The notes: generated from the letters alone by a model not told the origin. A DNA stretch of 32,000 bases from an uncultured Actinomycetota bacterium (GCA_963730165.1 CAVSQS010000005.1:40117-72116), one strand, 5' to 3'. Positions 14,971 to 32,000 are shown, numbered from the stretch's first letter. Program-made: numbers and translations.

Positions 14971-15809
14971 CGGTGCGTCTCCTCGGGGGTCGCGGCGCTC
15001 TCGTGCCGCTCGCTCTCGCGGCGGAACGGCTCGGCCGCGGCGTTGAAGGTGCGGAAGAGCCGCATGACATCCGGGTCCTCGAGCCCCAGGTCGTGGAGCC
15101 GGTCGGCCAGCGAGGAGGTGTTGGGCGAGTCCTGCGGGCCGAAGCACCCGTAGCAGCCGCGGTCGAAGGCGGGGCACAGGGCGCCGCACCCGGCCTGGGT
15201 CACCGGGCCCAGGCACGGGGTGCCGTGGGCGACCGTGACGCAGACGGTGCCGCGCCGCTTGCACTCGACGCAGACGCTGGAGGTGGCGATGCGTGGCGCG
15301 CGGTCCTGCAGGGTCGCGGCGAGCACCTCGAGGAGCTGGCCCCGGTCGACCGGGCAGCCGCGCAGCTCGAGGTCGACGCTGACGTGGGCCGAGATGGGGG
15401 TGGACCGCGCCAGGGTCGAGAGGTACTCGGGGTGGGCGTAGACGACGGAGCGGAACTCGGCGACGTCGGCGAAGTTGCGCAGCGCCTGGATGCCGCCCGC
15501 GGTCGCGCACGCTCCGATGGTGACGAGGCGACGGCTCATCCGACGGATCTGCTGGATCCGCTCCAGGTCCTCGGGGGTGGTGACCGACCCCTCGACGAGG
15601 GAGAGGTCGTAGGGCCCCTCGACGACCGCGCGGGTCGCCTCCGGGAAGTACGCGATCTGCACCGCGCCGGCGAGCTCGAGCAGCTCGTCCTCGCAGTTGA
15701 GCAGGGTCAACTGACAGCCGTCGCAGGAGGCGAACTTCCACACCGCGAGGGTGGGCCGGGCCCGCCGGGCGCCGGGCCCGAGCACGGGGTGGCCGTCGGT
15801 GACCGTCAT
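14967..15809 (-). CDS. hyhS: [NiFe] hydrogenase small (delta) subunit, group 3-type
   Basis: The block [27 protein letters not shown]...GSVTTPED...[14 protein letters not shown], plus C-terminal Cys clusters ([36 protein letters not shown]), is typical of Fe-S small subunits. Confidence 0.88.
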
Positions 15810-15811
15810 CG

Positions 15812-16666
15812 TCAGACCTCCGCCCTGGTGATCAACGGCTCGAGCACGTCGTAGGTGAGCACCGGCCCGTCGACGCAGACGAAGTGCTCGCGCAACTGGC
15901 AGTGGCCGCACAGCCCGATGCCGCACTTCATGTTGCGCTCCATCGACAGGCGCAGCCTGTCCTTCCGCACCCCGCGTTGGGTCAGCGCCGCGGCGGCGTA
16001 GCGCATCATCACCTCGGGTCCGCAGACGAGCGCCAGGGTGTTCGTCGCGTCGAACCCGCCGCGGGCGACGAGCTGGGTGACGAGCCCGACCCGCCCTCGC
16101 CACGCGTGCTGTCCGTTGTCGACGGTCACCTCGACGTCGATGCCGTGCTCCTGCGCCCACGTGCGCAGGTCGTCGCCGAAGAGGATGTCCTCCGGCGTGC
16201 GGGCGCCGTAGAGGAGGAGGACCCGCCCGTAGTCGCCGCGGGCGCGGCACACCTCGATGATCGCCGGCCGCAGCGGGGCCAGGCCGATGCCGCCGGCGAC
16301 GAAGACGACGTCGCCGCCCCGGCCCGCCGAGACCTCCCACCCGGTGCCGAACGGGCCGCGCACGCCGAGCTCGGTGCCCGGCACCGAGCGCACCAGCGCC
16401 CGGGTGACCGACCCGACGTCGCGGATCGTGTGCTCGAGCCGCTCGGGGCGGGCCGGGTCGCCGCTGATCGAGATCGGCGCCTCACCGACGCCGAAGGCCT
16501 GCAGCATCGTGAACTGCCCCGGCCGGAAGACCAAGGGAGGTCCGTCGACGGCCTCGAGGACCAGCGTGTAGGTGTCGCGCGTGTCCTGCCGATGGTGGCG
16601 GACCACGTACGGGCTGGGACGGAAGGGGTCGGCGGCGGCGTGGCCGCGGTCGGCGAGGAGGCTCAT
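15812..16666 (-). CDS. hyhG: hydrogenase gamma subunit: FAD/NAD(P)-binding oxidoreductase with C-terminal [2Fe-2S] motif
   Basis: The gene has a ferredoxin-reductase-type fold ([31 protein letters not shown]) and a terminal [12 protein letters not shown] motif, making it PyrK/AsrB-like. ATG 16666 overlaps the upstream stop (ATGA). Confidence 0.85.
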
Positions 16667-17124
16667 GCGGCTCCCCCGTAGAGGTCGACCAGCCGCACCC
16701 GGGCCGACTGGACCCGGTCGGCCATCACGGTGACCACCCGCTGGAGGAGTGCGTAGCCGACGGCGGGGTCCTCCTCGGCCTTGGCCCGCAGGCACGCGCC
16801 GTCGAAGGCGATCGCGCTGGTCTGCTCGGTCGCGCAGGCGTCGAACATCCAGCGGTACGGCGGGACGAGCCAGGACCAGCCGACGACGTCGTCGTCGTGG
16901 ACCGTGTCCACGACGACGTCGGGCCCGGCGGCGGCCCGCACCTCGAGGCTGACCCGGCCGTGCCGCACGACGTAGAAGGTGTCGGCCGGGTCACCCTCGT
17001 GGAACAGGTGCTCCCCCGGCCGGAAGTGGACGTTCTGGGCGCAGCCGGCGACGAGCCCGGCGACCGACTCGTCGAGCCCCTGGAAGAAGGGGTGCTGGGG
17101 CAGGTACTCCGCGATGGTGCGCAC
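16663..17124 (-). CDS. stand-alone cyclic-nucleotide-binding-like (CAP-fold) domain protein, no DNA-binding domain
   Basis: The 153-aa translation [50 protein letters not shown] has the cNMP-domain beta-roll signature. The region where the phosphate-binding cassette would be reads [24 protein letters not shown] 17124 is preceded by GGAG and lies 9 nt after the beta-subunit stop. Confidence 0.75.
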
Positions 17125-17133
17125 GACGGCTCC

Positions 17134-18315
17134 TCACTCGCCTCCCGGGCCCGCGGCGGCGACGGGCTCCGGCTGGTGCGACCCGGGGAGCCCTCGCAGG
17201 ACCGCGGCCTCCTCGGTGATGTCGATCCCGACCGGACACCACGTGATGCAGCGACCGCAGCCGACGCAGCCCGAGCTGCCGAACTGGTCCTGCCACGCGG
17301 CCAGCTTGTGCGTCATCCACTGGCGGTACCTCGACGAGGAGGACTCGCGCACCGTGCCGCCGTGGATGTACGAGAAGGCGGAGGTGAAGCACGAGTCCCA
17401 CACCCGGTGCCGCTCGACCCGGTCGCCGACGAGGTCGGTGGTGTCCTCGATCGAGGTGCAGAAGCACGTGGGGCACACGAGGGTGCAGTTGGTGCACGAG
17501 AGGCACCGGGTGGCCACCTCGCTCCACCGGGGACTGTCGACGCTCGCGTAGAGCAGCTCCTTGAGGCCCTGGGTGTCGAGCTGCCGGCCCATCCGACGGA
17601 TGGCCCGCGCGGTGACGTCGTCGGCGGCGGCGAGGTCCTCCGCTGCGGGTGGTGCGCTCGGCACCGCCTCCAGCACCTCCCGGCCGCGCTCGCTCCCGAC
17701 CTCGACGAGAAATCGGTGCCCGCCGCCCAGGAGCTCGGTGAGGACGAGGTCGACCGCGTCGTGCTCGGGGTCGGGCCTGGGGCCGGTGCCCATCGACGCG
17801 CAGAAGCAGGTGCCGCCGGGGTCGGCGCAGGCGACGGCGACGACGAAGGCGCCCTCCCGCCGGGCGGAGTAGCTCGGGTCGGTGAACCGACGCGCGGTGA
17901 GGACCGTGTCGTGGATCCCGACGGCGGCGACGTCGCAGGAGCGCACACCGATCAGCGCGTACGGCCCGCGTCGGCCGGTGTCGTCCTCGTCGGTGGGCTC
18001 GAGGTCGGCGCCGCGGCGGTCGGGGCGGCGGTGGCCGCGCCAGAGCAGCTCGTCGGCGGGGAAGAAGACCGGCTTCGCGGCCTGTGCGGCGGCGGCGAAG
18101 CCGAAGAAGGCCTCGTCGGTGCGCTCCCGCACGCGGTAGGTGCCGGGGGCCTGCTCGTCCCCGACGCCCCGAGGCAGGTCGTCGACGCCGGAGAGTGGTG
18201 CGGTGACGACGGCACCACCGCGGACCGTGGGTCCGAGGACGGTGAAACCTCGGTCGTGCAGGGCCTCGATGAGGGCCTGCAGGCCGGCGACGTCGATCAT
18301 CCGGTTCTCGACCAT
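17134..18315 (-). CDS. hyhB: hydrogenase beta subunit: 4Fe-4S dicluster protein (AsrA/HydB-like)
   Basis: ATG 18315 is preceded by GGGAGG. Two ferredoxin-type cluster motifs are present, [16 protein letters not shown] and [14 protein letters not shown]. The track ORF 17134..18645 carries a non-coding 5' extension. Confidence 0.8.
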
Positions 18316-18333
18316 CACGCCTCCCGCGGCGCC

Positions 18334-18356
18334 GGGGTGGACCCACTGTCCACCCC
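18334..18356. promoter_or_regulatory. 23-bp palindrome GGGGTGGAC-CCACT-GTCCACCCC immediately upstream of the hyhB RBS
   Basis: Perfect 9-bp arms (18334-18342 / 18348-18356) with a 5-nt spacer, located 19-41 nt upstream of the hyhB ATG. It is either an operator or an RNA hairpin. Confidence 0.35.
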
Positions 18357-18476
18357 CTCCACCGTAGGGGTTCCGGGCGGGCCGGCGGCTGTGAGATCGG
18401 ACATGCCCGCCGGTCACCGGCAGCGGGGCGGGGTGTCGGCGTCGGACGGGGCTCTCCCGGCGCCGAAGGGTCGTGG

Positions 18477-18932
18477 TCACGGTGCGGTCAGGACGTCGGA
18501 GCGGGCCGCTGAGGTGACCGAGATCGTGATCGAGACCCCGAGGTCGCGCAGGAACGACCCCACCATCGGCAGCTCCGCCTCGCCGATGAGTGCGACCACC
18601 GCGGTGCGCCCGTCGGGGCTGCCGGTGCGCGGGCCCAGCCGCCATCGGCTGACCCCGCCCGGTCGCCGGGCCGAGCCCACGTAGGCGGCGGCGCGCTCGC
18701 GCACCGAGGCGTCGCTCAGCGGTACGGCGTCACCGAGTCCGCGGTCGTATGCCGTGGCGTCGAGGGCGTTGGCGGCCTCGAGCGCGGCCCCGTCCGCGAC
18801 GTCGAGCAGCCGGATCCGCGCCAGGTGGGCGGAGGTGACCGCGACCGTCCCCGCGACGAGGACCATGGCGATGACGGCCAGACCCAGCAGGTAGAGACTG
18901 ATCGAGCCGCGCTCGTCCCGCTGCCCCGTCAC
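18477..18932 (-). CDS. TadE/TadG-like pseudopilin-type protein (third of three)
   Basis: GTG 18932 overlaps the upstream stop (GTGA). The N-terminus VTGQRDERGSISLYLLGLAVIAMVLVAGTVAV is a charged leader ending in ERG followed by a single hydrophobic helix. Confidence 0.75.
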   Translation of the reverse strand: MTGQRDERGSISLYLLGLAVIAMVLVAGTVAVTSAHLARIRLLDVADGAALEAANALDATAYDRGLGDAVPLSDASVRERAAAYVGSARRPGGVSRWRLGPRTGSPDGRTAVVALIGEAELPMVGSFLRDLGVSITISVTSAARSDVLTAP

Positions 18933-20922: not shown

Positions 20923-21788
20923 CGGAGCACCCGCCGGTCCTCGGGCAGCCGACCGAGCCGCATCATCGACCAGTACGCCACGGCGGTGACCCCGGCTCCC
21001 GCCCCGAGGATCGCCACCCCGAGCGGGGAGGCGTAGGCGGCCACGGACTCGGGGTTGGTCGACAGCATGGCCAGCACGATCCACGGCGCCGCAGCGGCCA
21101 GGCGGGCGGCGTTGACGGTCCACGACTGGCGCGCCTCGAGCTCGGCACGGGTCCGCGCGTCCTCGCGCAGGAAGCCGGACAGGGTGCGGAGCAGGTGCCC
21201 CAGGTCGCTCCCGCCGACCTCACGGGCGATGCGCAGGCTCTCGACGAGCCGGTCGCCGACCGGGTCACTGAGGTGGTCCTTGAGACGGTCGAGGCAGTCG
21301 GCGAACCGCCCCGAGAGCCGGTAGTCGTCGGCGAATCGGCGAAACGGCTCACGAAGCTCCTCGGGACCGCGCTCACCCAGCTGGCTGAGCGCCTCCGGTA
21401 GCGCCATCCCGGCCCTCACCGCGGAGACGATGTTGTCGACGGCATCCGGCCAGAGGTCGCGCAAACGGGCCCGCCGACGGCGCGCGCGGCGACGGACGAG
21501 CACGATGGGCGCGGCAGCGGCCATGCCGGCGAAGCACACGGCGATGGGGAGGACGCCCACGGTGAGGTGCACGAGGGCCAGGACGAGGAGTGCGGCCATC
21601 GCGCACCCGCCGAGCAGGGTCCGCAGGCCGAGCCCGGCGAACCCTGCCTGGACCACGTCGTCGGCGAGCCGGTTTAGCGGCCCGAGGCCGCGGGCACGCT
21701 CTGGTGTCGGCGGGGACGGCACCCAGCAGCTCCACCAGACGAGGAAGAGCCCCGTCCCCGCCCCGAGCCCGACGAGGAGGCCCGTCAT
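20919..21788 (-). CDS. tadB: type II secretion system F-family membrane protein (TadB-like)
   Basis: ATG 21788 overlaps the tadA stop (ATGA). The T2SSF-type domain (LWPDAVDNIVSAVRAGMALPEALSQL) has flanking TM helices. Confidence 0.82.
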   Translation of the reverse strand: MTGLLVGLGAGTGLFLVWWSCWVPSPPTPERARGLGPLNRLADDVVQAGFAGLGLRTLLGGCAMAALLVLALVHLTVGVLPIAVCFAGMAAAAPIVLVRRRARRRRARLRDLWPDAVDNIVSAVRAGMALPEALSQLGERGPEELREPFRRFADDYRLSGRFADCLDRLKDHLSDPVGDRLVESLRIAREVGGSDLGHLLRTLSGFLREDARTRAELEARQSWTVNAARLAAAAPWIVLAMLSTNPESVAAYASPLGVAILGAGAGVTAVAYWSMMRLGRLPEDRRVLR

Positions 21789-23014
21789 GCCGGCTCCCGC
21801 GTCAACAGCGCCGCGACGTCGAACCCCGCGCGCTCGAATCGCTCGGCGTGCGGCGGGAAGCCGTCGGCTCGCCGCAGCTCACCGTCGCGGCGGACGAAGA
21901 TGTCGGCGATCTCGACGACGTCCTCCTCCACTCGACCCGGCACCGCGGCGACTTCTCGGACGACCCGACGGCCGTCGCGCTCCAGGGAAAGATGGACGAC
22001 GAGGTCGACGGAGGCCGCGACCGTCGGCACGACGAAGCGGGCCGCGACGTTCTCACCGGCGAGGAGGGGCAGCGTGCACATCTTCGTCACCGCCTCACGG
22101 GCACTGTTCGCGTGGACGGTGCACATCCCGGGTAGTCCCGAGTTGAGGGCGATGAGCAGGTCGAGACTCTCCGCCTGCCGGACCTCGCCCACGACGATGC
22201 GCGACGGCCGCATCCGCAGGGCCTCCTTGACGAGCCGGCGGAGTGGCACCTCCCCGGTCCCCTCGAGGGACGGCTGGCGACACTGCATGGAGGCCACGTC
22301 GCGGTGAGGGATCCGCAGCTCGAAGACCTCCTCGCAGGTCACGACCCTCTCCCGCGCGGGAATGGCGGCCGCGAGGCAGTTCAACATGGTCGTCTTCCCC
22401 GCCTGGGTGCCTCCGGCGACCAGGATGTTGAGGCCGGCCACGACGGCGGCATCGAGGAAGCGCGCGGCCTGCGGTGTGATCGTGCCGAGCCGGAGCAGGT
22501 CGTCCATCGTGTCCGCCTTCACGACGAACTTGCGGATGTTGACGTACCAGTGCTCGCGCGTGATGTCGGGGATGACGACGTGCAGTCGGCTGCCGTCAGG
22601 CAGCACCGCGTCGACGAACGGGGAGGACAGGTCGACCCGCCGCCCGGACGGCTTGAGCATCCGCTCGACGAGGTCCCGGACCTGGTCGTGGGTCAGGAGC
22701 GTGGTGGTCAGCTCGGCCACCCCGTCACGGGCGACGAAGACGCGAGACGGCTCGTTGACCCAGATCTCCTCGATGCTGGGATCGTCGAGGTACTGCTGCA
22801 ACGGACCGTAACCGACGACGGTGTCCCACAGCACCTTCGACGTCGCACCAGGATCGGTCAGGACGGGCAGTCCACCGTGCATCGAGCGCTCGTCGTAATC
22901 GGTGACGGCATCGTGCACCAGGCGTCGGACCGCCGGTTCGTCACGCTGCGGGTCCAGACCCGAGCGACGGATGAGCTCGCGCACCTCACCCTCGAGCGTG
23001 GCGACGGCGTCCAC
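21785..23014 (-). CDS. tadA: TadA/CpaF-family secretion ATPase
   Basis: Walker A is GGTQAGKTTMLN. The Asp/His boxes of type II/IV secretion NTPases are present (RIVVGEVR, GLPGMCTVHANS). I prefer GTG 23014, preceded by GGGAAGGGGG; the track start at 23077 adds 21 Arg/Gly/Pro-rich codons. Confidence 0.9.
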   Translation of the reverse strand: MDAVATLEGEVRELIRRSGLDPQRDEPAVRRLVHDAVTDYDERSMHGGLPVLTDPGATSKVLWDTVVGYGPLQQYLDDPSIEEIWVNEPSRVFVARDGVAELTTTLLTHDQVRDLVERMLKPSGRRVDLSSPFVDAVLPDGSRLHVVIPDITREHWYVNIRKFVVKADTMDDLLRLGTITPQAARFLDAAVVAGLNILVAGGTQAGKTTMLNCLAAAIPARERVVTCEEVFELRIPHRDVASMQCRQPSLEGTGEVPLRRLVKEALRMRPSRIVVGEVRQAESLDLLIALNSGLPGMCTVHANSAREAVTKMCTLPLLAGENVAARFVVPTVAASVDLVVHLSLERDGRRVVREVAAVPGRVEEDVVEIADIFVRRDGELRRADGFPPHAERFERAGFDVAALLTREPA

Positions 23015-23118
23015 GGCTGACCCCCTTCCCCGAGCGGCCGGGCCCCTCCCCGGTGCACTGCCCCTAGGGAACCCCACCAGAGGGGCGGCCGCATCCCGAG
23101 CGGCGCACGACTGTGGAC
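22763..23118. repeat. direct repeat copy A (356 bp): first 84 codons of tadA plus 104 bp of leader
   Basis: It aligns base for base with 26371-26726. The lengths are equal, there are no indels, and I count 5 substitutions by eye. Confidence 0.9.
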
Positions 23119-23341
23119 AACGCGGCTCTGGAGCGACGGACGAGGACCATGGGGCCCAAGAGCCCCAGTGGTCCCACGGCGCGGCGGGCGCCAGGGCAAG
23201 CCTTGCCGGTGGCCGTCAGAACGACTCGGCCGAGGCGCCCAATCCGCACCCTCGGATCCCCTCGCCGCACTGCAAGGACGACGGCGGAGTCGCAGGCGCT
23301 ATCGCACGGGAGTGTCGGACCTCAGCTGAGACGGCTTCGAG

Positions 23342-23827
23342 CTAGGAGATGTAACCCGCCAGCGCGTCCTTGACCCCGTTGGAGACGGAGCTGGTGCCGC
23401 CGAGGATGACGATCCGGCCAGGGTTGAGCCGGGTCAGCTCATCGGCGACGACGGACGGGATCGACGTCGGCGTCACCAGCAGCACCGGACCGCCCTTGAC
23501 CCGCCCGCGGGACCACCCGAGAGCGCATCCGGGAAGCTCGTCCCCGTCGCCACATACGCCACCGGCACCCTCCGGTCGAACGTCGCGGCGCTGATCGCCG
23601 CCGACGTCGCATACCGGTTCCGACCCGACACCCGGTCCACCGACCCGGCCACCGTGGCAACCTCCGGCGCCACCCCCGGCCACGGTGGTCACACCCCCTG
23701 CGGCGCTCGCAGCAACACCCCCACCACCGAGCACCACCGCTACCGACGCCACCAACGCCCCCCACCCCCACCACCACCGAGAACCCGCCCCGCCACCCTT
23801 GCGACCGCAAGACGGGCGCCACCCCAT
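23342..23827 (-). pseudogene. frameshifted CWB2 (cell-wall-binding repeat 2) protein remnant
   Basis: A single CWB2 unit is split across two frames. The frame of 23473..23673 gives VDRVSGRNRYATSAAISAATFDRRVPVAYVATGTSFPDALSGGPAGG. The frame of 23342..23827 gives KGGPVLLVTPTSIPSVVADELTRLNPGRIVILGGTSSVSNGVKDALAGYIS. The break is at GGCGGG-TCAAGGGC (~23500-23506). A signal-peptide-like N-terminus (WGALVASVAVVLGGGGVAASAAG) sits in the second frame, which implies another shift near 23675-23700. Confidence 0.65.
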
Positions 23828-24347
23828 TCCGACCGATTCACAGAATCCGTCTCACCAGGCGACCAAAGGTTCGACCGTCGGCCACGTAGACCCGCTCTCG
23901 CGCATTCACCGAAATCCGGCGGACGCGCGGAATCTCGGCTGGATACGCCTTCTTGTGCATTTCCTGTGTGGATGGCTGGGTGTCGGCGGGGAGGCGCAGA
24001 TCCCCAACGGAGCCATTCCGTGGAACGGGCCGCTCGGCTGCGTCGTGCGCGGCCACAGCCACTACGTGCGCCAACAGGCGTGCCCCGCATCGGCCTCCTT
24101 CGGTGAACGGACGACAAGGGAATGGCGATGAACGGAGAATCATCGCCCGCTTGATGAGATGGGGCCCTCCGACCAGCTGCGCCATCAGTAGGGTCCAGAT
24201 GCAGTTGAGCCCATTCGGCTCCGGGGGCTGCACAACGAATGGACTCCGGGGCCCGCACGACTATCGAATTGACGGACGTCGATACAAGGCAGGCCGACCA
24301 CGTCGAACGGCGGCCACTGACTGGAGAACCCTCGAAAGGCTGACACG

Positions 24348-25982
24348 ATGCTGAGATTGAAGCGAGCCGATCACCGCGACGCCGTGACAACCCGAACCGC
24401 GCGTCTGTCCGCGTGGATCATCGCAGCTGTGGTTGCTGCGTTTGCGACCGTCGGCGGGCTCTCGGCCTCGGCTTCCGCGGCTACTCCCCCGATTCCTGGG
24501 TTTGAGATCTCCGTCCAAGACGCCTCAGGTGCCTCGACTACCGACGGCGCCATCACGGTCACGGCCACGACTGCCCCGGACGGCACCTACGACGTGAGCA
24601 TCTACAACCAGACCGACCTCGCCGGGTTCGGCCAGATCACCGTGCCGGGAGGGAACGCCTACACCGGGACCGGGCTCGATGCCAGGACCTACACCGTCAT
24701 CGTGCGCAATAACAGCGACCAGAGCGAAGTTGGACGCGACCTCAACGTGGTGGTCGGCGTGAGCACGGGCGCCCAGGCCACGGTGGCGGTCAGCTTCGCT
24801 GGCCCCACGGCGTGCTACCCCGACAATGGGTCGGTTCAGGACGTGCCGTTCAGCGTCACGAACGGACCTGTGGCGCAGGACATCACCGTGACGTTGGTGG
24901 ACAGCGGCGTGGCCACGCTCATCGACACCGTCGTCCCACATGCAGCGGGCCAGACCAACGATTCTGCCTTGGTGGCGGTGGACATCATCTTCGGCCACAC
25001 CTACGTGCTGACGGCCACCGGGGCCATTGGGGGAACCGATTCCGCGACGTGGACCGCGCCGGCGCTCTGTGACCCGGTGGCCCGCATCTCCGGCCCGAAC
25101 CGGTACGCCACCTCCGCAGCGATCAGCGCCGCGAGCTTCGACCCCGGCGTCCCCGTGGCCTACGTCGCCACCGGCACCAACTTCCCCGACGCCCTCTCCG
25201 GCGGCCCCGCCGGGGGCATCAAGGGCGGCCCCGTCCTCCTGGTCACCCCCACCTCCATCCCCACCGAGGTCGCCGCCGAGCTGACCCGACTCCAGCCCGC
25301 ACGCATCGAGATCCTCGGCGGGACCAGCTCGGTCTCCACCGCAGTCGAGACCGCCCTCGGCGGGTACACCTCCGGCCCGGTGGACCGGCTCTCCGGCCCG
25401 AACCGGTACGCCACCTCGGCAGCGATCAGCGCCGCGAGCTTCGACCCCGGCGTCCCCGTGGCCTACGTCGCCACCGGAGTGAACTTCCCCGACGCCCTCT
25501 CCGGCGGCCCCGCCGGAGGCCTCAAGGGCGGCCCCGTCCTCCTGGTCACCCCCACCTCCATCCCCTCGCAGGTCGCCGCCGAGCTGACCCGACTCCAGCC
25601 CGGCCGGATCGTCATCCTCGGCGGGACCAGCTCGGTCTCCACCGCAGTCGAGACCGCCCTCGGCGGGTACACCTCCGGCCCGGTGGACCGGCTCTCCGGC
25701 CCGAACCGGTACGCCACCTCCGCAGCGATCAGCGCCGCGAGCTTCGACCCCGGCGTCCCCGTGGCCTACGTCGCCACCGGAGTGAACTTCCCCGACGCCC
25801 TCTCCGGCGGCCCCGCCGGAGGCCTCAAGGGCGGCCCCGTCCTCCTGGTCACCCCCACCTCCATCCCCTCGCAGGTCGCCGCAGAGCTGACCCGACTCCA
25901 GCCCGCACGCATCGAGATCCTCGGAGGAACCAGCTCGGTCTCCACCGCCGTCGAGACCGCCCTGGCCGCCTACATCAAGTAG
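24348..25982 (+). CDS. secreted protein: N-terminal ~240-aa unknown beta-rich region plus three tandem CWB2 cell-wall-binding repeats
   Basis: The signal peptide is ARLSAWIIAAVVAAFATVGGLSASASA. It is followed by three 101-aa units, each reading SGPNRYATSAAISAASFDPGVPVAYVATG.NFPDALSGGPAGG.KGGPVLLVTPTSIP..VAAELTRLQP.RI.ILGGTSSVSTAVETAL. This matches the CW_binding_2 pattern (R.aG.dRY.TA..., DAL, P.LL, .ILGG...VS). Stop TAG at 25980-25982. Confidence 0.85.
   Translation: MLRLKRADHRDAVTTRTARLSAWIIAAVVAAFATVGGLSASASAATPPIPGFEISVQDASGASTTDGAITVTATTAPDGTYDVSIYNQTDLAGFGQITVPGGNAYTGTGLDARTYTVIVRNNSDQSEVGRDLNVVVGVSTGAQATVAVSFAGPTACYPDNGSVQDVPFSVTNGPVAQDITVTLVDSGVATLIDTVVPHAAGQTNDSALVAVDIIFGHTYVLTATGAIGGTDSATWTAPALCDPVARISGPNRYATSAAISAASFDPGVPVAYVATGTNFPDALSGGPAGGIKGGPVLLVTPTSIPTEVAAELTRLQPARIEILGGTSSVSTAVETALGGYTSGPVDRLSGPNRYATSAAISAASFDPGVPVAYVATGVNFPDALSGGPAGGLKGGPVLLVTPTSIPSQVAAELTRLQPGRIVILGGTSSVSTAVETALGGYTSGPVDRLSGPNRYATSAAISAASFDPGVPVAYVATGVNFPDALSGGPAGGLKGGPVLLVTPTSIPSQVAAELTRLQPARIEILGGTSSVSTAVETALAAYIK
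25077..25982 (+). repeat. three tandem 303-bp coding repeats (CWB2 units) with very high nucleotide identity
   Basis: The units start at 25077, 25380 and 25683, a period of exactly 303 nt. Units 2 and 3 differ at only 2 positions over their first ~225 nt. Unit 1 carries the same 3' variant (gcacgcatcgagatcctcgg) as unit 3. Confidence 0.9.
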
Positions 25983-26058
25983 GCCCTCCTCGCGCCCCGG
26001 AGGGCCTAAAGCAGCATCGCCTGGGGCCAGCGCAGACCGCGCTGGCCCCAGGCGATGC
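25981..26058 (+). terminator. two consecutive stem-loops after the CWB2 gene (9-bp stem, then 20-bp perfect stem)
   Basis: The first is AGGCCCTCC (25981-25989) / GGAGGGCCT (25999-26007). The second is GCATCGCCTGGGGCCAGCGC (26014-26033), loop AGACC, GCGCTGGCCCCAGGCGATGC (26039-26058). The first stem overlaps the stop codon. Confidence 0.6.
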
Positions 26059-26370
26059 AGTGCTCCACGACGGGCGAATCCCCGCCACCCCTTCGGGTGC
26101 TGCCTCCAGCGAGAGCGGTCGTCGCAGTGCCCGAGAGGTAGCCGACCGCGTCAGGAGGCGCCGACCATGGCCTTCTCGACGCACCCACTCGAAGCGAGGT
26201 CAGCCCGCTGGGTTGCTGGTGGTAGGCGCATGGGACGGACCATGTCTCGGCGGGACACGCGCTCCAAGTGGAGCAAGACAGAAACCGGCCGCGGATGGCC
26301 CACCAAGCTGAGGACGAGGTGGCGGCAGCGCGGAGGGCGAGCACCCGGGAATCAGTCGCCGCTTGATTCG

Positions 26371-26622
26371 GATCTCCTCGATGCCGGGATCGTCGAGGTA
26401 CTGCTGCAACGGACCGTAACCGACGACGTTGTCCCACAGCACCTTCGACGTCGCACCAGGATCGGTCAGGACGGGCAGTCCACCGTGCATCGAGCGCTCG
26501 TCGTAGTCGGTGACGGCATCGTGCACCAGGCGTCGGACCGCCGGTTCGTCACGCTGCGGGTCCAGACCCGAGCGACGGATGAGCTCGCGCACCTCACCCT
26601 CGAGCGTGGCGACGGCGTCCAC
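26371..26622 (-). pseudogene. truncated duplicate of tadA (first 84 codons only)
   Basis: The GTG at 26622, with the same GGGAAGGGGG RBS, encodes VDAVATLEGEVRELIRRSGLDPQRDEPAVRRLVHDAVTDYDERSMHGGLPVLTDPGATSKVLWDNVVGYGPLQQYLDDPGIEEI. The frame then runs into unrelated sequence (RIKRRLIPGCSPS...) until the stop at 26200. No ATPase domain is present. Confidence 0.85.
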
Positions 26623-26726
26623 GGCTGACCCCCTTCCCCGAGCGGCCGGGCCCCTCCCCGGTGCACTGCCCCTAGGGAACCCCGCCAGAGGGGCGGCCGC
26701 ATCCCGAGCGGCGCACAACTGTGGAC
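26371..26726. repeat. direct repeat copy B (356 bp) of the tadA 5' end plus leader
   Basis: See copy A. Homology ends abruptly at 26370/26371 (inside the tadA reading frame) and at 26726/26727. Confidence 0.9.
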
Positions 26727-26948
26727 GAGGCGACGCTGCAGGGGGAGATGAGAACGAAGTGACCTACCGACGCGCGACCCGGACGACGCAAGAGAGCGGT
26801 TCGGCGGTCCGCCCCGGCTGGTGGCGCCGCGGTGGGCGCACCCCAGCATCCACGCCGTCTGTCGTCGTCCCGACCTCGTTGACCGCGGCATACCAGTTGG
26901 GTACCACGTCGCAGGTGGCGTGCTGCCGTGGACGGCTTGCTGGGCAGC

Positions 26949-27290
26949 TCAGACGTGCTGGACGTGGTAGACGACGGTCTGCACGCGGATCTTGCCGTCA
27001 GCGAAGACGAAGGTGTCGATGCCGTCGTCGACCTTGAAGCCCTCACCGGAGGCGGCCCACTCGAGGTACAGGACGTCGTCGGCGAACGTCGTGGAGAGGG
27101 TCCACTCGGCGTTCGGGACGTCGCTGAGCAGCTGGGTGAACACCTCCCGGGCCCCTTCCAGCCCCCGAAGGACCTTCCCCTGCACGATGAACAGCGAGTC
27201 CTCGCTGTAATCCTCGAGGATGCCCTCCAGGTCACCGGCTCCCAGTACCTGGCCGTGGTGCGCAAAGACCTCTTCCGGAGTCCGCGACAT
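26949..27290 (-). CDS. NTF2-fold / SnoaL-like small protein (113 aa)
   Basis: ATG 27290 is preceded by GGAAGGGGGA. The translation MSRTPEEVFAHHGQVLGAGDLEGILEDYSEDSLFIVQGKVLRGLEGAREVFTQLL...DDVLYLEWAASGEGFKVDDGIDTFVFADGKIRVQTV shows the typical SnoaL-like pattern. The track ORF has a 55-codon non-coding extension. Confidence 0.7.
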   Translation of the reverse strand: MSRTPEEVFAHHGQVLGAGDLEGILEDYSEDSLFIVQGKVLRGLEGAREVFTQLLSDVPNAEWTLSTTFADDVLYLEWAASGEGFKVDDGIDTFVFADGKIRVQTVVYHVQHV

Positions 27291-27681
27291 TGCGGTCCCC
27301 CTTCCGTTTCGTGGGCTGTCCCTCAGGGCGGTACGAGAAGTGTCCCACCCCGCAAATGTGCGCCACAAGGCGCTGCCTCTGGCCAACGGGCACTCCCGGT
27401 GCTTGGCTCTGACCAGGGGCGGGCCGCGAGGGCTACCGCTTCCCGACTTCGCCAAGAGTGGTCATGAGCTGCGGTCGAGGAGGTCCCGGAGCCGGCGCTG
27501 CGCGAGGTCGGGTCCGCTGTGGATCACCTGGCGCCGGGCTACGCGTCGCCCCCCATCCGCTCATCAGCGAGAGCCTCGCTGCGCTCACCAGCGCCGGTGA
27601 GCCGACCCCCCGCTCTCGAGAGAGGCACTCCCCGAGGCAGTCCCGACCAGCGGATCGCGATGTGAGCAGGCGACGACCCGA

Positions 27682-28230
27682 TCACCCGGGTCGGTGCTCG
27701 GAGGTCCGCTGCTCCGAGCGCAGGATCCCCATGCGCACGACGTCCTCGTAGGCGCCACGGACCCAGGCGTGCTGGCGTTGACGTCCCTCCACGACGAAAC
27801 CCGCCTTCTCATAGGCGCGGATGGCGGCGATGTTCGATGAGATCGCCTGAAGATGGATCCGGCGCAGGTTGAGACGCACGAACCCGAACTCGACGAGCTG
27901 GCTGATGGCGGCTGTCCCGATCCCCCGACCCCGGGCGCCCCGTTCCAGGGTGATCCCGGCCTCGGCGTGACGCGCGAGCAGGTCGACGTCGAACAGGGTC
28001 GCACTGCCGACAGCTGTGCCGTCGACGTCGACGACGAAGAACACCGGGGCCCGGGGGTCCTCGTCGTCGGCAGCGCGCGCGAGTCGAGCGTCGAAGCGGT
28101 CCCTCGTGACGGGGCGCGGCGCGTGCGATGTCCGCTCCTCCCAGGTGTCCAGGTCGGCGGCGGTCTCGAACAGCAGGTCGAGGTCTTCGTCGGTGCGGGG
28201 CCGCAGCGACACGATGGGTGGGTTCGGCAC
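27682..28230 (-). CDS. GNAT-family N-acetyltransferase (RimJ/RimL-like)
   Basis: The sequence runs LRPRTDEDLDLLFETAAD ... the motif-A region ITLERGARGRGIGTAAISQLVEFGF ... LQAISSNIAAIRAYEKAGFVVEGRQR. The start is either GTG 28230 or GTG 28212. The 400-aa track ORF is a read-through of junk frame. Confidence 0.8.
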   Translation of the reverse strand: MPNPPIVSLRPRTDEDLDLLFETAADLDTWEERTSHAPRPVTRDRFDARLARAADDEDPRAPVFFVVDVDGTAVGSATLFDVDLLARHAEAGITLERGARGRGIGTAAISQLVEFGFVRLNLRRIHLQAISSNIAAIRAYEKAGFVVEGRQRQHAWVRGAYEDVVRMGILRSEQRTSEHRPG

Positions 28231-28381
28231 GGTCAGGACGCTACGGCGATGACGGCGGGCACACCACCGGCTTTCGCCCGTGTCGGGGACGAGGGCGACG
28301 AAGCGCAGGATGCCGTGCTTCCGCCGATGGCGTGGAAGAGGCACGCTGGACGCGTTGTCGCGACGTCGGAGGGAGTGCCAG

Positions 28382-28564
28382 GTGGACATCGACCGGCAGG
28401 AGATCATCGACCAGCTTCGCGGTCGGAACGAGGACGACGTCGCCGACCTCGCGGAGCGAGAGCTCCCCGAGGTGGTCGACACCCAGGAGCATGCCGACCT
28501 CCTCCATCGGCTCGGCATCAACCCGGCGGATCTGCTGGGTGGGATCGGTGGCACCTTCGGCTGA
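28382..28564 (+). CDS. hypothetical small acidic protein (60 aa)
   Basis: GTG 28382 is preceded by GGAGGGAG (28369-28376). The translation is VDIDRQEIIDQLRGRNEDDVADLAERELPEVVDTQEHADLLHRLGINPADLLGGIGGTFG. Third-position GC is high, but the exactly antisense frame is also open and GC3-rich, so the strand is not certain. Confidence 0.4.
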   Translation: MDIDRQEIIDQLRGRNEDDVADLAERELPEVVDTQEHADLLHRLGINPADLLGGIGGTFG

Positions 28565-28736
28565 GCCGCCCCGAGGCCGGACGTTCCGCGCCGTGCAGAC
28601 CGACTGGTCCCTCGTCCAACCGCATTGCTCGAGGTACGACCCTGCAGCCGGGTGACGGTGTGGGCAATCCACTGTTCGTACTGCGCGTCGCTCCAGCCGG
28701 CGTGGCGCACGAGCAGCCGGTATCCCTGGTCGGTCA

Positions 28737-29285
28737 TCACTGCCCACAGGCCCTCGGCGCGCTGACGCTCCAGGTCGTGGCCGGCCATGAGCGCCATCCC
28801 GGCGACGAAGTCCGGCGCTGGCGCTCCATCTCGGCGGTCAACTCCTCCGCCGGCGCGGCCTCGGTGTCGGCGGCCGTGCGCCACACCCGCATCAGCTCCA
28901 CCGTGCGCCGGTGCACCTCGACTGCCAGCCGCGCGCCGGCCGCGGCAGGCTGCGGAAGGTCACCCTCGGCCAGCGCCGCGAACCGGTCACGCGCCATGGC
29001 CCCCACCGGCTCGTCGTCACCGACCGCGGCCACGTCGACGACCGCCTTGAACAGCTCTGCCTTCGACCCGAACGTGTCGTAGATCGTCTTCAGCGAGATA
29101 TTCGCGTCCTCGGCGATGTCTCGAACCCGCGTCGCGGCCCACCCGCGGTCGACGAGCATTCGGTGGGCCACCGCCAGGACCGCCGCCCGCGTCCGTCGCG
29201 CCTGGCGGCTCCGCAGATCACTGACGTATCGCCGTCGGGGCGGCTCGGGCTCCTCCCGAGTTGCGTCCGCTGCGCTCCCCTCCAT
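28737..29285 (-). CDS. TetR/AcrR-family transcriptional regulator, apparently frameshifted in its C-terminal domain
   Basis: The N-terminal HTH is RTRAAVLAVAHRMLVDRGWAATRVRDIAEDANISLKTIYDTFGSKAELF. The last ~25 codons of this frame (RRTSSPGWRSWPATTWSVSAPRACGQ) look like junk. A TetR-like C-terminus (DFVAGMALMAGHDLERQRAEGLWAVMTDQGYRLLVRHAGWSDAQYEQWIAHTVTRL) is encoded in another frame over ~28650-28815. Confidence 0.7.
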   Translation of the reverse strand: MEGSAADATREEPEPPRRRYVSDLRSRQARRTRAAVLAVAHRMLVDRGWAATRVRDIAEDANISLKTIYDTFGSKAELFKAVVDVAAVGDDEPVGAMARDRFAALAEGDLPQPAAAGARLAVEVHRRTVELMRVWRTAADTEAAPAEELTAEMERQRRTSSPGWRSWPATTWSVSAPRACGQ

Positions 29286-29463
29286 TACCTCGAGATCGCA
29301 CCGCCATTTCAGCGAATGACCGGCGGATGAGGCGGTTCCTCGTCAGCGACGAAGCACCGCGCGCCACGCAGGCCGCCGGGCGGCCCCGTCCGCGACTCAC
29401 CCTCCCCCGGGACCTGTGGACAACCGACGGCCGGTGTCGCCGGCGGCACCTACGGTCGCCCAC

Positions 29464-32000
29464 ATGGAGATGGGGGTCACCGTGCACGAGCCACGCCGCC
29501 GACCGCGGCCGGTCGAGCTGACCGTGCGCTGGACGGGCGAACACACCACGGCCGACCTCCGGGCGGCCCTCGCTGATCACCTGGGTCGGCCGGTCACGCA
29601 CCTCCTGGCATCGGGGCGACCGGTACCCGATGACGCGCTCGTCGGCCGCCCGCCACTTCTCGACGGTGTCTCGCTCGTCATCGCACCGACGGCGGCTGCA
29701 CTCGGAGCGCTGGCCCCTCCCGCGGCGCTCGAGCTCGCCGTCGTCGCTGGCCCCGACGCCGGCCGGTCTCGGCCCTTGGTCCCGCCGGGCTTCGAGGTGG
29801 GCCGTGGGCCCGGAGCGGGAATGCGTCTGGACGACCCAGCCCTCAGTCGCGTCCACGCGCAGGTCGTGGTGGATGCCACCGGCGTCCGGATTCGCGACCT
29901 CGGGGCGACGAACGGGGTGCTCGTCGATGGTCGCCGGGTCCAGGACGCCGCCTCGGTCGACACCCGGTCGACCATCCTGGCCGGCCACAGCACACTGGCC
30001 CTGCGCCGACGGCCACCACCCGGGCTCCCGCTCTCGCACTCCGGCGACGGCACCGAGCTGCTCACCATCGGACCCTCGGCTCCCGAGGGCTCGCCCGCCG
30101 TCGAGGTGGCGGCACCACGCGAGCCGGAGGACTCCCCACCGCCGCGCATCCCGTGGCTGGCCGCGCTGGTGCCGCTGCCCGTCGCGCTCGTGCTCGCCGC
30201 GTTCCTCGGTGCGCACCTGCTGGCCTTCGCGCTGCTCGGACCCGTCACCGTCATGGGCAGCGCCCTCGGCGACCGATGGGGCGGACGGCGACGCCGACGA
30301 CGGGCGTGGGAGGAGCACGCCACGGCGCTGGCAGCCGCCCGTCAACGGCTCGCCAGCGCGCTCCAGGCCGAACGGGATGAACGGCAGCGCCGGCATCCGG
30401 ACCCCCACGTGATCCTGGTCCGCGCAGAGCGCCGGCTGCCCGGGCTGTGGTGCGGCGCGGGTCCCACCGTCCGGGTCGGGCTCGCGGCGATCGCCTCGCG
30501 CACGTCGTGGGTGGCCGGCGGCTCCGGCGAGTCGGCGGCCCTCGCGGACGCGCCGCTCACCATCGACCTGCTCGAGGTCGGGAGCCTGGCCGTCGTCGGG
30601 CCGGAGGCCCAGGCCCGGAAGGTGCTCGACTGGCTCCTCGGGCAGCTCTGCGTCCGCCTGCCGCCCGAGCGGCTCCACGTGTCGGCCAGCGACCCGCGCC
30701 TCCTCGGCGAGTGGCAGCGGGTCCCCCACGCACGCCGGGGTCCCGCCCCCGGAGCAGTGCGGTGCCACGTCGTGCGGAACGGCGACGACCCCGCCGACGC
30801 ACCGGCGCCAGGGATCCTCGCCGATGTCACGATCCTCCTCGCATGCTCTCCGACCGAGCTGCCGGACACCCCTGGGGCAACCCTGATGATCGGGCCCACC
30901 GGACGTGCCCACCTCGCAGGAGCGGAGGGTCCACCGTCACCCGTCACGCTCGACGGCGTGGGCGACTGGTGGGCAGAGCGGGTCAGCCGTGCCCTCGCCC
31001 CTCTCCGCTGTGCGGGCTCGCCGAGCCCCGGCGGGAGCGACGACGACCTGACGATCGCCGACCTCCTCGGAGCCGACCGGATGTCACCCGACGGCATCGC
31101 GAGCCACTGGGACGAAGGCCCTCACGAGCCGTCGGCCGCGGTGGGGAGGGTGGGCCGCGTCGTCCAGCGCATCGACCTGGCCCGGCACGGGCCGCACGTG
31201 CTCGTCGCGGGGACCACCGGCTCCGGGAAGTCGGAGTTCCTCCGGACGCTCGTGACCGGGCTGGCCCTCGAGCTGCCACCCGAGCGGCTGTCGTTGCTGC
31301 TCGTCGACTTCAAGGGCGGCGCGGCGTTCGGGCCGTGCGCCCGGCTCCCCCACGTCGTGGGTCTCGTGACCGATCTCGACGACCATCTCGTCGGCAGGGT
31401 GCTCACCTCCCTGCGCGCCGAGCTCCGCCGCCGCGAGCAGGTTCTCGCCGCCGCCGGCGCCGCCGACCTGGGCGAGCTCGACGGCCGCTCCCCCCTCCCC
31501 CGGCTCGTCCTCGTCGTCGACGAGCTCAGAGCCCTGGTCGACGAGCTCCCCGAGTTCGTCAGCGGCCTCGTCCGGCTGGCCGCCCAGGGCCGTTCTCTCG
31601 GCATCCATCTCGTCCTCGCGACCCAGCGACCCGGCGGCACTGTCACCGCCGAGATCCAGGCAAACGTCGACCTCAGGGTGGCCTTCCGCGTCCGCGACCG
31701 GACCGACTCCGTCGACGTGATCGAGGCCCCGGACGCGGCGCTCATCGACCCGCGCTGCCCCGGCCGGGCCATCGCCCGCGGCAGCGACGGCGCCCTCACC
31801 GACTTCCGTGCCGCGCTCGTCGCCCCACCCCCGGAGGGGACCGGGCTCACCGTCGCGCGCGTTGCATCGGCGCCGGCAGTCGCTGACGGTCCCCGGACCC
31901 GCGAGCGCAGCGCCGAGACCGCGGCGGTCGTCTCCGCGGTGGCGGCCGCCGCGGGCGCTCGACGGGTCCCTCTCCCGGCGCCGCCGTGGCTGCCGCCACT
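29464..32000 (+). CDS. FHA-domain plus FtsK/SpoIIIE-family ATPase membrane protein (EssC/EccC-like architecture), 3' end beyond the window
   Basis: Absent from the supplied ORF track because there is no stop in the window. I translated it by hand, line by line, from ATG 29464 to 32000 and found no stop and very high third-position GC. It contains an FHA block (GRGPGAGMRLDDPALSRVHAQVVVDATGVRIRDLGATNGVLVDGRRV), two TM helices (IPWLAALVPLPVALVLAAFLGAHLLAFALLGPVTVMG), Walker A GTTGSGKSEFL (31210-31233), Walker B LVLVVDEL (~31507) and LVLATQRP. The start is uncertain: GTG 29416/29434, ATG 29470 and GTG 29482 are also in frame. Confidence 0.85.
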   Translation, partial: MEMGVTVHEPRRRPRPVELTVRWTGEHTTADLRAALADHLGRPVTHLLASGRPVPDDALVGRPPLLDGVSLVIAPTAAALGALAPPAALELAVVAGPDAGRSRPLVPPGFEVGRGPGAGMRLDDPALSRVHAQVVVDATGVRIRDLGATNGVLVDGRRVQDAASVDTRSTILAGHSTLALRRRPPPGLPLSHSGDGTELLTIGPSAPEGSPAVEVAAPREPEDSPPPRIPWLAALVPLPVALVLAAFLGAHLLAFALLGPVTVMGSALGDRWGGRRRRRRAWEEHATALAAARQRLASALQAERDERQRRHPDPHVILVRAERRLPGLWCGAGPTVRVGLAAIASRTSWVAGGSGESAALADAPLTIDLLEVGSLAVVGPEAQARKVLDWLLGQLCVRLPPERLHVSASDPRLLGEWQRVPHARRGPAPGAVRCHVVRNGDDPADAPAPGILADVTILLACSPTELPDTPGATLMIGPTGRAHLAGAEGPPSPVTLDGVGDWWAERVSRALAPLRCAGSPSPGGSDDDLTIADLLGADRMSPDGIASHWDEGPHEPSAAVGRVGRVVQRIDLARHGPHVLVAGTTGSGKSEFLRTLVTGLALELPPERLSLLLVDFKGGAAFGPCARLPHVVGLVTDLDDHLVGRVLTSLRAELRRREQVLAAAGAADLGELDGRSPLPRLVLVVDELRALVDELPEFVSGLVRLAAQGRSLGIHLVLATQRPGGTVTAEIQANVDLRVAFRVRDRTDSVDVIEAPDAALIDPRCPGRAIARGSDGALTDFRAALVAPPPEGTGLTVARVASAPAVADGPRTRERSAETAAVVSAVAAAAGARRVPLPAPPWLPP

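Follow-up and report, generated by a model that had tools for sequence, protein, structure and literature searches.

Organisation of the tadA locus

The window, a stretch of 32,000 nucleotides from an uncultured Actinomycetota bacterium, carries the intact tadA/cpaF-type pilus ATPase gene of a Tad pilus operon, and the 5' end of this gene is present a second time further upstream (Table 1). The tadA product matched CpaF structures at 1.9e-67, and its start, a GTG at 23014, was fixed by alignment with 11 relatives. Amino-acid identity of TadA to the proteins of 80 Dermatophilaceae loci ranged from 73 to 91%; at a 90% identity threshold the protein formed a cluster with a single member. The source is a single contig of 729,619 bp recorded in NCBI and ENA only, and a cluster look-up of its proteins gave no close mates. 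The two copies of the tadA 5' end bracket a segment with CWB2 cell-wall-binding genes. Beyond copy B lies another, older extra block, followed by a gene with FHA and FtsK/SpoIIIE domains on the opposite strand.

Table 1. Features of the tadA locus and its upstream region (positions counted from the first letter of the window).
Feature	Position	Strand	Remarks
Intact tadA/cpaF-type pilus ATPase gene	21785-23014	-	409 aa; Pfam T2SSE 2.7e-40
Repeat copy A	22763-23118	-	104-bp leader and tadA codons 1-84; continues into intact tadA
Perfect 9-mer TTGTCCACA, DnaA-box-like	23112-23120	-	At the upstream leader end of copy A; straddles the repeat boundary
Bracketed segment	23119-26370	.	3252 bp; missing from all 80 related tad loci
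CWB2 gene remnant	~23345-23650	-	One terminal repeat; inverted repeats, translation, tblastn
Intact CWB2 cell-wall-binding gene	24348-25982	+	544 aa; three CWB2 domains; Pfam 1.2e-56
Long perfect hairpin	26010-26063	.	Between convergent CWB2 gene and tadA fragment
Chimeric open frame	26200-26622	-	84 TadA codons and 56-codon tail, then stop ending at 26200
Repeat copy B	26371-26726	-	Matching leader and tadA codons 1-84; truncated after ...IEEI
Degenerate box TCGTCCACA	26720-26728	-	Leader end of copy B
Older extra block	26727-29412	-	Between FtsK-like gene and tadA; Pfam
Spacer	starts 26727		222 bp; older block, next to copy B
SnoaL-like gene	26949-27290	-	113 aa; Pfam
GNAT gene	27682-28884	-	Pfam
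TetR gene	28737-29285	-	Pfam
Second perfect TTGTCCACA box	29415-29423	-	Lies 41 nt from the start codon of the FtsK-like gene; same in relatives
FHA and FtsK/SpoIIIE-domain gene	29465-32000	+	Pfam; extends past the window end

The 5' end of tadA is duplicated

A first-pass annotation of this DNA had described two 356-bp direct repeats with five differences. Comparison at an offset of 3608 positions reproduced their boundaries to the base together with the same five positions, and a repeat search returned the same pair. The copies are collinear and differ by substitutions only, four transitions and one transversion (copy A/copy B: 22777 T/C, 22821 G/T, 22898 A/G, 23076 A/G, 23109 G/A), with no indels, which corresponds to 98.6% identity or 1.4% divergence. 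A 356-bp repeat at this identity is far beyond chance. Each unit consists of 252 bp of coding sequence (84 codons) and the 104-bp leader including the GGGGAAGGGGG ribosome-binding site, as annotated before, now with the GTG start fixed by the relatives. Copy A runs on into the full-length gene and copy B is truncated, its match to TadA ending at codon 84, again in agreement with the annotation. It had been considered that the unit might be a dispersed element unrelated to tadA. It is tadA's own 5' end, and no further copy was present elsewhere in the window.

In copy B the 84 TadA codons are fused to a 56-codon tail with a GC3 of 0.56, which is non-coding-like compared with 0.81-0.99 in real genes. 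No Pfam family was assigned to the chimeric frame, and its exact product was absent from the protein collection searched. The stub covers the N-terminal segment preceding the region that aligns with the CpaF ATPase domains. Judged from sequence, copy B is a dead-end, non-functional 5' stub. Three of the five differences could be polarised by means of the relatives: two are derived in copy B, including one non-synonymous change (T to N), and one, which is synonymous, is derived in copy A. Such a distribution would fit a constrained gene (copy A) beside an unconstrained stub (copy B), the numbers being tiny. That the duplication was instead retained because it is useful, as an extra promoter or as a small TadA N-terminal peptide modulating the pilus ATPase, seems highly improbable to us. 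Copy B does retain the leader, the ribosome-binding site and an open frame to codon 84. However, the composition of its tail, its degenerate box and the derived, partly non-synonymous changes speak against a function, and nothing similar was seen in any relative.

An Rfam scan of 21000-30000 gave only sub-threshold chance matches and no riboswitch or leader RNA, a scan for promoter and terminator consensus sequences gave no match, the predicted leader fold was no better than that of shuffled sequence (z +1.5), and an exact 26-mer of the leader had no match in the metagenomes scanned.

The two ends of the repeat differ in character. Inside tadA the repeat ends abruptly; microhomology there, if any, amounts to a few bases. 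Beyond the leader-side end the identity fades, and 24 of 42 positions still match in register (empirical p 5e-4). Sequences of the relatives align across both ends of copy A, and the leader end of the repeat coincides with the conserved DnaA-box-like motif TTGTCCACA, where the similarity among relatives also stops. Here copy A retains the intact conserved GCGTTGTCCACAG and copy B has CTCGTCCACAG, as revealed by comparison with the relatives, so that either copy may be the resident one. The fading on one side and the abrupt end on the other suggest that the repeat has one homology-limited end (leader) and one illegitimate end (inside tadA). An old duplication homogenised by gene conversion was rejected, because the ~43% divergence just outside the repeat offers no homology to seed conversion.

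The bracketed segment lacks mobile-element genes

The segment between the copies had been annotated as containing two CWB2 genes, one of them decayed, about 1.1 kb of non-coding DNA and no recombinase. This inventory held up; the part without recognisable gene amounts to ~1.1-1.3 kb, and the spare ORFs of the segment gave no Pfam matches. The intact CWB2 protein has a signal-peptide-like N-terminus followed by an orphan 245-aa N-terminal domain. All database homologues match the CWB2 half only, and no relatives of the N-terminal domain were found in database or metagenome-contig searches. Within the gene, three 303-bp tandem repeats (25073-25978) are 92-94% identical to each other. The CWB2 remnant is 75-77% identical to these repeats at the nucleotide level and forms with them the sole inverted repeats; nucleotide alignment located the 1-nt deletion that breaks it in a G run. 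The hairpin that separates the CWB2 gene from the convergent tadA fragment has a minimum free energy of -54.4 kcal/mol (z-score -7.2, 0/200 shuffles equally stable) and is likely to act as a two-way terminator, as predicted from its fold. A short repeat (D7, 24124-24155 versus 26336-26367) was considered as a sign that the right end of the segment is a second CWB2 upstream region and discarded, its score lying within the shuffle range.

The first-pass annotation had called the insert foreign-looking. We could not confirm this impression. The GC content of the segment is 69.9% versus 72.2% for the window, the GC3 of the intact CWB2 gene is 0.83-0.89 versus 0.87-0.99 in core genes, and the composition of the segment is near-native. 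CWB2 genes are common in the lineage, and another one (P0020) is located on the same source contig.

Direct repeats that bracket a block missing in relatives are also what a mobile element, be it a transposon, an integrative element or a phage remnant, would leave on insertion, the repeats being attachment or target sites. This explanation is extremely improbable. No transposase, integrase or other recombinase was detected in any frame of the segment, either with Pfam or in spare ORFs, and neither replication or transfer genes nor an origin were found there. The window has no tRNA or tmRNA genes, and the segment ends have no terminal inverted repeats. Similarity searches for the source of the segment, as had been proposed, returned no matching segment in relatives, plasmids or phages, the phage matches being trivial and limited to the CWB2 repeats. 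Transposons and insertion sequences bring a transposase, terminal inverted repeats and a target duplication of 2-14 bp, and none of the three is seen at the segment. The earlier argument that a transposon target-site duplication would not reach 356 bp is supported. Prophages, integrative conjugative elements and genomic islands, which carry an integrase and attachment repeats and often sit at a tRNA gene, likewise find no counterpart here. What is repeated belongs to a housekeeping operon, namely 356 bp of its own 5' end.

The region upstream of tadA is variable among relatives

The FHA-FtsK-like gene is a family-wide divergent neighbour of tadA and adjoins it in most relatives, with a gap of ~150 bp versus 6.45 kb here. 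The TetR-GNAT-SnoaL block is missing from the corresponding place in most relatives, and we take tadA to have already lost its FHA-FtsK-like neighbour to this block. The DNA past copy B had been regarded as native upstream DNA, but the ancestral neighbour is the FHA-FtsK-like gene (29465), which was displaced earlier. The absence of an ssd/cpaE-like gene had also been tied to the duplication event. This connection does not hold, since in none of the tblastn-annotated relatives with adjacent FHA-FtsK-like gene and tadA does a gene lie between the two.

The first-pass annotation had proposed searching relatives for an empty site with one repeat copy and no insert. Neither a second tadA 5' copy nor the CWB2 segment was found by blastn and tblastn in any of the 80 Dermatophilaceae tad loci (0/80); all 80 have a single copy. 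None of these relatives is conspecific (TadA identity ≤91%); the empty sites thus come from other species, and the comparison includes no strain with the donor arrangement and no true empty site of the same species. By this comparison the duplicated arrangement is best regarded as derived. In one relative (L004) the SnoaL gene is followed by tadA without an insert. The SnoaL-tadA spacer of L004 has no homology to either insert flank, which ruled it out as an empty site split by the insert; because this spacer is not homologous to the one here, L004 provides only an approximate empty site. The closest SnoaL homologues reside in unrelated contexts elsewhere, and no closer empty site was found among them.

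Other relatives hold unrelated cargo in the FtsK-like/tadA gap: thiolase, AMP-ligase and BioY; an EF-G paralogue; SBP-VWA; an FAD oxidase; PAS-EAL; an M1 peptidase; and GNAT. The gap is therefore a variable spot. No recombinase was found among the cargo of these relatives. As a recurrent rearrangement spot in Dermatophilaceae, the gap is possibly more useful than the repeat itself.

Origin of the duplication

We consider it slightly better than an even bet that the arrangement is a structural variant that arose when DNA of a close relative, carrying its own tadA 5' end, was integrated in a homology-dependent manner at this naturally variable spot upstream of the tad operon. In one partner, the tadA leader would have been directly preceded by the CWB2 segment; in the other, the SnoaL block would have occupied this place. 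The incoming fragment would have comprised the CWB2 segment, the leader and the first 84 tadA codons. It may have closed into a circle and integrated by a single crossover in the 356 bp common to both partners (Campbell-type integration). Alternatively, homologous recombination at the tadA end may have been combined with an illegitimate join at the other end. By either route, the new DNA would come to be flanked on each side by the common 356 bp. If the repeat is the stretch shared by strains with differing upstream DNA, its leader end is expected at the similarity break of the relatives. The repeat with its content, the lack of this arrangement in the relatives, the variability of the site and the missing mobile-element genes are direct observations; that two strains contributed, which way the DNA was transferred and which molecular route it took are our inferences. 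A Campbell-type integration had been the initial proposal; the repeat geometry and the single copies in relatives are in line with it, whereas no origin, integrase or other specific sign of a circular molecule was seen, and a circular intermediate is possible.

Known systems resemble the locus in part. Experimentally, a single crossover of self-closed incoming DNA during conjugation yields flanking duplications of 109-950 bp (PMC3240628), a range that includes the 356 bp found here. As in such Campbell-type products, including those of suicide plasmids, the direct repeats at tadA represent the shared homology, and one repeat runs into the intact gene while the other is truncated. Unlike them, the locus has no vector, origin, marker or recombinase, its cargo is ordinary chromosomal-type DNA, its copies diverge by 1.4%, and the circular intermediate would have to be assumed. 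Homology-facilitated illegitimate recombination would share with our case a homology-limited end, fading here at the box, an abrupt joint, here inside tadA, and foreign DNA adjoining the anchor gene, but classically it replaces or deletes DNA of the recipient, whereas a duplication is seen here. Merodiploids of Streptococcus pneumoniae reportedly carry segmental duplications that arise in natural genetic exchange and are large, tandem and located between repeated elements. They have in common with the tadA locus a partial chromosomal duplication by recombination with incoming related DNA; instead of a large tandem duplication, however, a short gene 5' end here brackets cargo that is not duplicated.

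Alternatively, the duplication could have arisen within one genome. In the tadA 5' region, a replication fork that broke or stalled would have switched template to a CWB2 locus at another place of the same chromosome, or ends would have been connected to this locus by NHEJ; ~3.25 kb would have been copied before a return upstream of the leader, with the 356 bp being copied again. We rate this course as unlikely. The lack of mobile-element genes, the native-like composition of the segment and the CWB2 paralogue P0020 on the same contig are in its favour, as are the gene fragment within the segment, which points to past illegitimate joins, and the abrupt tadA-internal joint with few bases of microhomology at most. 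However, copies made in one event start out identical, and the five differences require time. Neither the position of the leader boundary at the family-wide similarity break, the box, nor the weak homology past it (24/42) is explained, and the agreement of the copy A leader end with the relatives (GCGTTGTCCACAG) would be unexpected for a random template switch.

An assembly artefact, in which co-occurring strains with the SnoaL block and with the CWB2 segment were placed in series and the shared 356 bp falsely doubled, appears rather unlikely. The source is probably a metagenome-assembled contig, and many of the relatives are long-read MAGs. In haplotypic false duplications from mixed-sample assemblies, copies as similar as those found here (98.6%) flank strain-specific DNA at a variable site; a copy divergence of 1.4% is typical for co-existing strains, the site varies among relatives, and a 1-base frameshift in a G run, as in the CWB2 remnant, is a long-read type of error. 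However, neither hypothetical strain would contain the 26370/26371 joint, at which the far end of the segment meets tadA codon 84, and a graph-based assembler would therefore need chimeric reads to create it. Moreover, the sequence has no Ns or gap, and the copies differ by substitutions only, mostly transitions, without indels. Users of this assembly should verify the locus with reads.

If DNA of a close relative was integrated as we favour, the pilus operon should still be expressed, because the 104-bp leader of tadA, box included, remains complete. The whole leader was duplicated together with the gene start, and for this reason the cargo would leave the operon undisrupted. The copy B stub would run into the hairpin terminator. 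The locus has the look of a common recombination scar within a variable stretch and not of a new kind of genetic element. Taken at face value, it illustrates cleanly how, in nature, an insertion flanked by homology can add chromosomal cargo beside an operon.

A DnaA-box-like motif marks the leader end

Perfect matches to TTGTCCACA occur twice in the window compared with 0.07 expected, and both correspond to the high-affinity DnaA-box consensus of Actinobacteria (PMC4285127). The box at the leader end of copy A is conserved in position in the relatives. Judged from its sequence, the motif might just as well be bound by another regulator or belong to a promoter. A literature search found no report linking DnaA boxes, or FHA-FtsK genes, to tad loci or tadA, respectively, in Actinobacteria. 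One may imagine the TTGTCCACA box as a recombinase-independent capture site for repeated gain of unrelated DNA in Dermatophilaceae, with the tadA duplication as a fresh case, and/or as an element that ties expression of the Tad pilus to DnaA and the cell cycle, but we regard this as very unlikely. A hint towards a capture site is that in the window and in two relatives (L013 and L065) boxes are located on both sides of the extra DNA. The DnaA-box-like motif, whose position is sharply defined, anchors the FtsK-like/tadA gap and could have a regulatory role for the Tad pilus operon.

A 356-bp direct repeat of the tadA 5′ end

Comparison of the window with itself revealed an unbroken collinear match of 356 bp (offset 3608 bases) between 22763-23118 (copy A) and 26371-26726 (copy B), and a separate repeat search recovered the same pair. 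The copies differ by five substitutions (22777, 22821, 22898, 23076 and 23109) and no indels, in exact agreement with the coordinates and differences listed in the first-pass annotation. The Tad pilus ATPase gene tadA lies on the minus strand. Alignment with relatives places its GTG start at 23014, so that each copy comprises codons 1-84, preceded by 104 bp of leader with the ribosome-binding site. In copy A the frame runs on into the full-length gene, whose product aligns with Caulobacter CpaF structures from residue 64 onwards (1.9e-67). In copy B the tadA sequence, here called the stub, ends after ...IEEI and is followed by 56 further codons of non-coding composition (GC3 0.56), with the stop codon ending at 26200. 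The described order of intact gene, insert and 5′ fragment is right. Three of the five differences can be polarised by relatives in the leader/tadA alignment. In copy B the derived states are one non-synonymous change (T to N) and one change in the leader; in copy A there is a single synonymous one. These changes, too few for a test, fit a gene under constraint and a stub released from it; a selected function of the stub is poorly supported and very unlikely.

Features of the tadA region and cargo in the corresponding gap of related loci
Feature	Location	Strand	Description
tadA, full-length	continuous with copy A	-	409-aa ATPase; Pfam T2SSE 2.7e-40
Box, copy A	23112-23120	-	perfect
CWB2 remnant	~23345-23650	opposite to intact CWB2 gene	one complete terminal repeat; frame broken by single-base deletion
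Intact CWB2 protein gene	24348-25982	+	544 aa; signal-peptide-like start, orphan N-terminal domain, three tandem repeats
Hairpin	26010-26063		perfect, 54 nt, between convergent CWB2 gene and stub; -54 kcal/mol, z -7.2
Gap, first block	26727-29412		TetR-GNAT-SnoaL and spacer
Gap, second block			copy B and CWB2 segment
Box, FtsK-like gene	29415-29423	-	perfect; 41 nt from FtsK-like start, as in relatives
Gap cargo	L065		thiolase, AMP-ligase, BioY
Gap cargo	L072		EF-G paralogue
Gap cargo	L030		SBP-VWA
Gap cargo	L074		FAD oxidase
Gap cargo	L079		PAS-EAL
Gap cargo	L020		M1 peptidase
Gap cargo	L068		GNAT

The arrangement is derived

A scan with one genome per species provided 80 Dermatophilaceae tad loci from Oryzobacter, Phycicoccus, Ornithinibacter, Knoellia, Janibacter and other genera. 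Their TadA proteins are 73-91% identical to that of the window, and hence no conspecific is among them. Neither a second tadA 5′ copy (0/80) nor the CWB2 segment, the 3252 bp between the copies (0/80), was found in these relatives. This marks the arrangement as derived and, among the loci sampled, as unique.

In most relatives a divergent gene encoding FHA and FtsK/SpoIIIE domains (FtsK-like gene) is located ~150 bp upstream of tadA. In the window it starts at 29465, 6.45 kb from tadA. Since the TetR-GNAT-SnoaL block also occupies this gap, tadA had been parted from its ancestral neighbour already before, or independently of, the duplication event. The DNA beyond copy B can thus not be regarded as native upstream DNA, and the missing ssd/cpaE-type gene, mentioned in the first-pass annotation in connection with the event, is a family trait that does not stem from it. 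All 80 loci have a single tadA without the insert, including L004, which also carries the SnoaL gene upstream (88% nucleotide identity). However, the SnoaL-tadA spacer of L004 is unrelated to that of the window and the next gene further upstream differs as well, so that this locus, like the others not conspecific, is only an approximate empty site. Other relatives carry unrelated cargo in the gap (see table), with no recombinase in any of the seven. To judge from these loci, the FtsK-like/tadA gap is a recurrent rearrangement spot.

Contents of the CWB2 segment

The three tandem repeats of the intact CWB2 gene (303 bp each, 25073-25978) share 92-94% nucleotide identity, compared to only 75-77% between them and the remnant repeat. 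This difference points to either concerted evolution or a recent duplication inside the gene. Among 5.8 billion proteins the N-terminal domain (245 aa, 24348-25082) had no homologue other than its own entry, and JGI metagenome contigs contained no relative; database matches span the CWB2 half only. The base missing from the remnant lies in a G-rich stretch. Should the source be a long-read assembly, the frameshift could be a sequencing error instead of decay, and even then the one-repeat gene would still be truncated. The hairpin, with an unusually long stem of ~24 pairs and no T tract, is probably a bidirectional terminator. The remaining DNA of the segment contains no recognisable gene. The segment lacks a recombinase, as stated in the first-pass annotation, and terminal inverted repeats; no tRNA gene was found. 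It had no match to plasmids, and the sole phage matches were trivial ones to the CWB2 repeats. A mobile element is poorly supported and extremely improbable.

Repeat boundaries and proposed origin

The leader end of the repeat falls inside a DnaA-box-like 9-mer (the box), where similarity among relatives also stops. Past the box, the flank of copy A agrees with that of the nearest relatives (GCGTTGTCCACAG) and the flank of copy B does not. The copies still match in register at 24 of 42 positions beyond this boundary (random pairs average 12.6; empirical p 5e-4), after which similarity is gone. At the tadA-internal end it stops abruptly. The fading leader end and the abrupt inner end therefore point to one homology-limited and one illegitimate end.

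GC content is 69.9% in the segment and 72.2% in the window, and GC3 is 0.83-0.89 compared to 0.87-0.99 in core genes. With a composition so near native, the segment is "foreign-looking" only in being absent from relatives. Intragenomic template switching or end-joining would fit this composition and the gene fragments present, but is unlikely, as it accounts neither for a boundary at the conserved box nor for the homology fading past it. False duplication during assembly is somewhat less likely still. The source sequence, one contig of 729,619 bp found in NCBI/ENA only and without cluster mates, is thus probably a metagenome-assembled genome, and the 1.4% divergence of the copies is strain-like. 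However, neither strain would contain a joint of codon 84 to the far segment end, and the copy differences are substitutions throughout.

We propose instead that the 356 bp represent the stretch common to two close strains differing upstream of the box, with the CWB2 segment in one and the SnoaL block in the other. The incoming fragment would comprise the CWB2 segment, leader and 84 codons. It could have closed on itself and integrated by a single crossover, for which duplications of 109-950 bp are documented (PMC3240628), compared to 356 bp here, or entered by one homologous and one illegitimate end. The sequence is compatible with both routes, which it cannot separate, and with either copy as resident. 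A Campbell-type origin, as first suggested, is possible and has the right geometry, but nothing is specific to it and homologous plus illegitimate ends fit equally. The original observation hence stands, its interpretation only in part. The feature adds a new case to a known class of recombination scars, at a variable chromosomal spot. Because copy A retains the whole ancestral intergenic leader with its box intact, the event has probably left tadA expression unchanged. Transcripts starting in the stub leader would meet the hairpin.

A DnaA-box-like motif upstream of tadA

A sharply position-specific, family-wide DnaA-box-like motif emerged as the most interesting by-product of the analysis. 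GTT[G/A]TCCACAG is conserved at the upstream end of the tadA leader in relatives, and its core equals TTGTCCACA, the actinobacterial high-affinity DnaA-box consensus (PMC4285127). In the 80 loci (1.39 Mb), 64 of 74 occurrences of TT[G/A]TCCACA on either strand are located between 80 and 230 bp upstream of tadA. Of the 78 loci whose upstream sequence is long enough, 59 have a box in this interval. Copy B of the window reads TCGTCCACA at its leader end. The box may be a regulatory site common to tadA and the divergent FtsK-like gene; no literature link of the 9-mer to tadA was found. Where extra DNA parts the two genes, it is often flanked by a box pair. Direct copies were seen in L013 (9584 and 9895, 310 bp apart), L065 (5781 and 9883, 4.1 kb) and the window (29415 and 23112, 6.3 kb). 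Some relatives at a greater distance (L025, L049) have two or three boxes without an insert, and therefore an ancestral multi-box gap later split by insertions is the simpler reading.

SnoaL-like gene and downstream genes

The SnoaL-like gene (26949-27290) is 88% identical to L004 309-830 in nucleotide and ~98% in amino acid sequence; tadA is less conserved (~80% and 89%). The closest SnoaL homologues elsewhere (L081-L083) lie in unrelated contexts, next to Zn-ADH, glyoxalase or SBP_bac_5 genes, which suggests that this small gene moves between loci. The region 13660-18645, on the downstream side of the tad genes, encodes a cNMP-binding protein, a 4Fe-4S dicluster protein, an NAD-binding oxidoreductase and a NiFe-hydrogenase-like ORF, in part syntenic with related tad locus L002.
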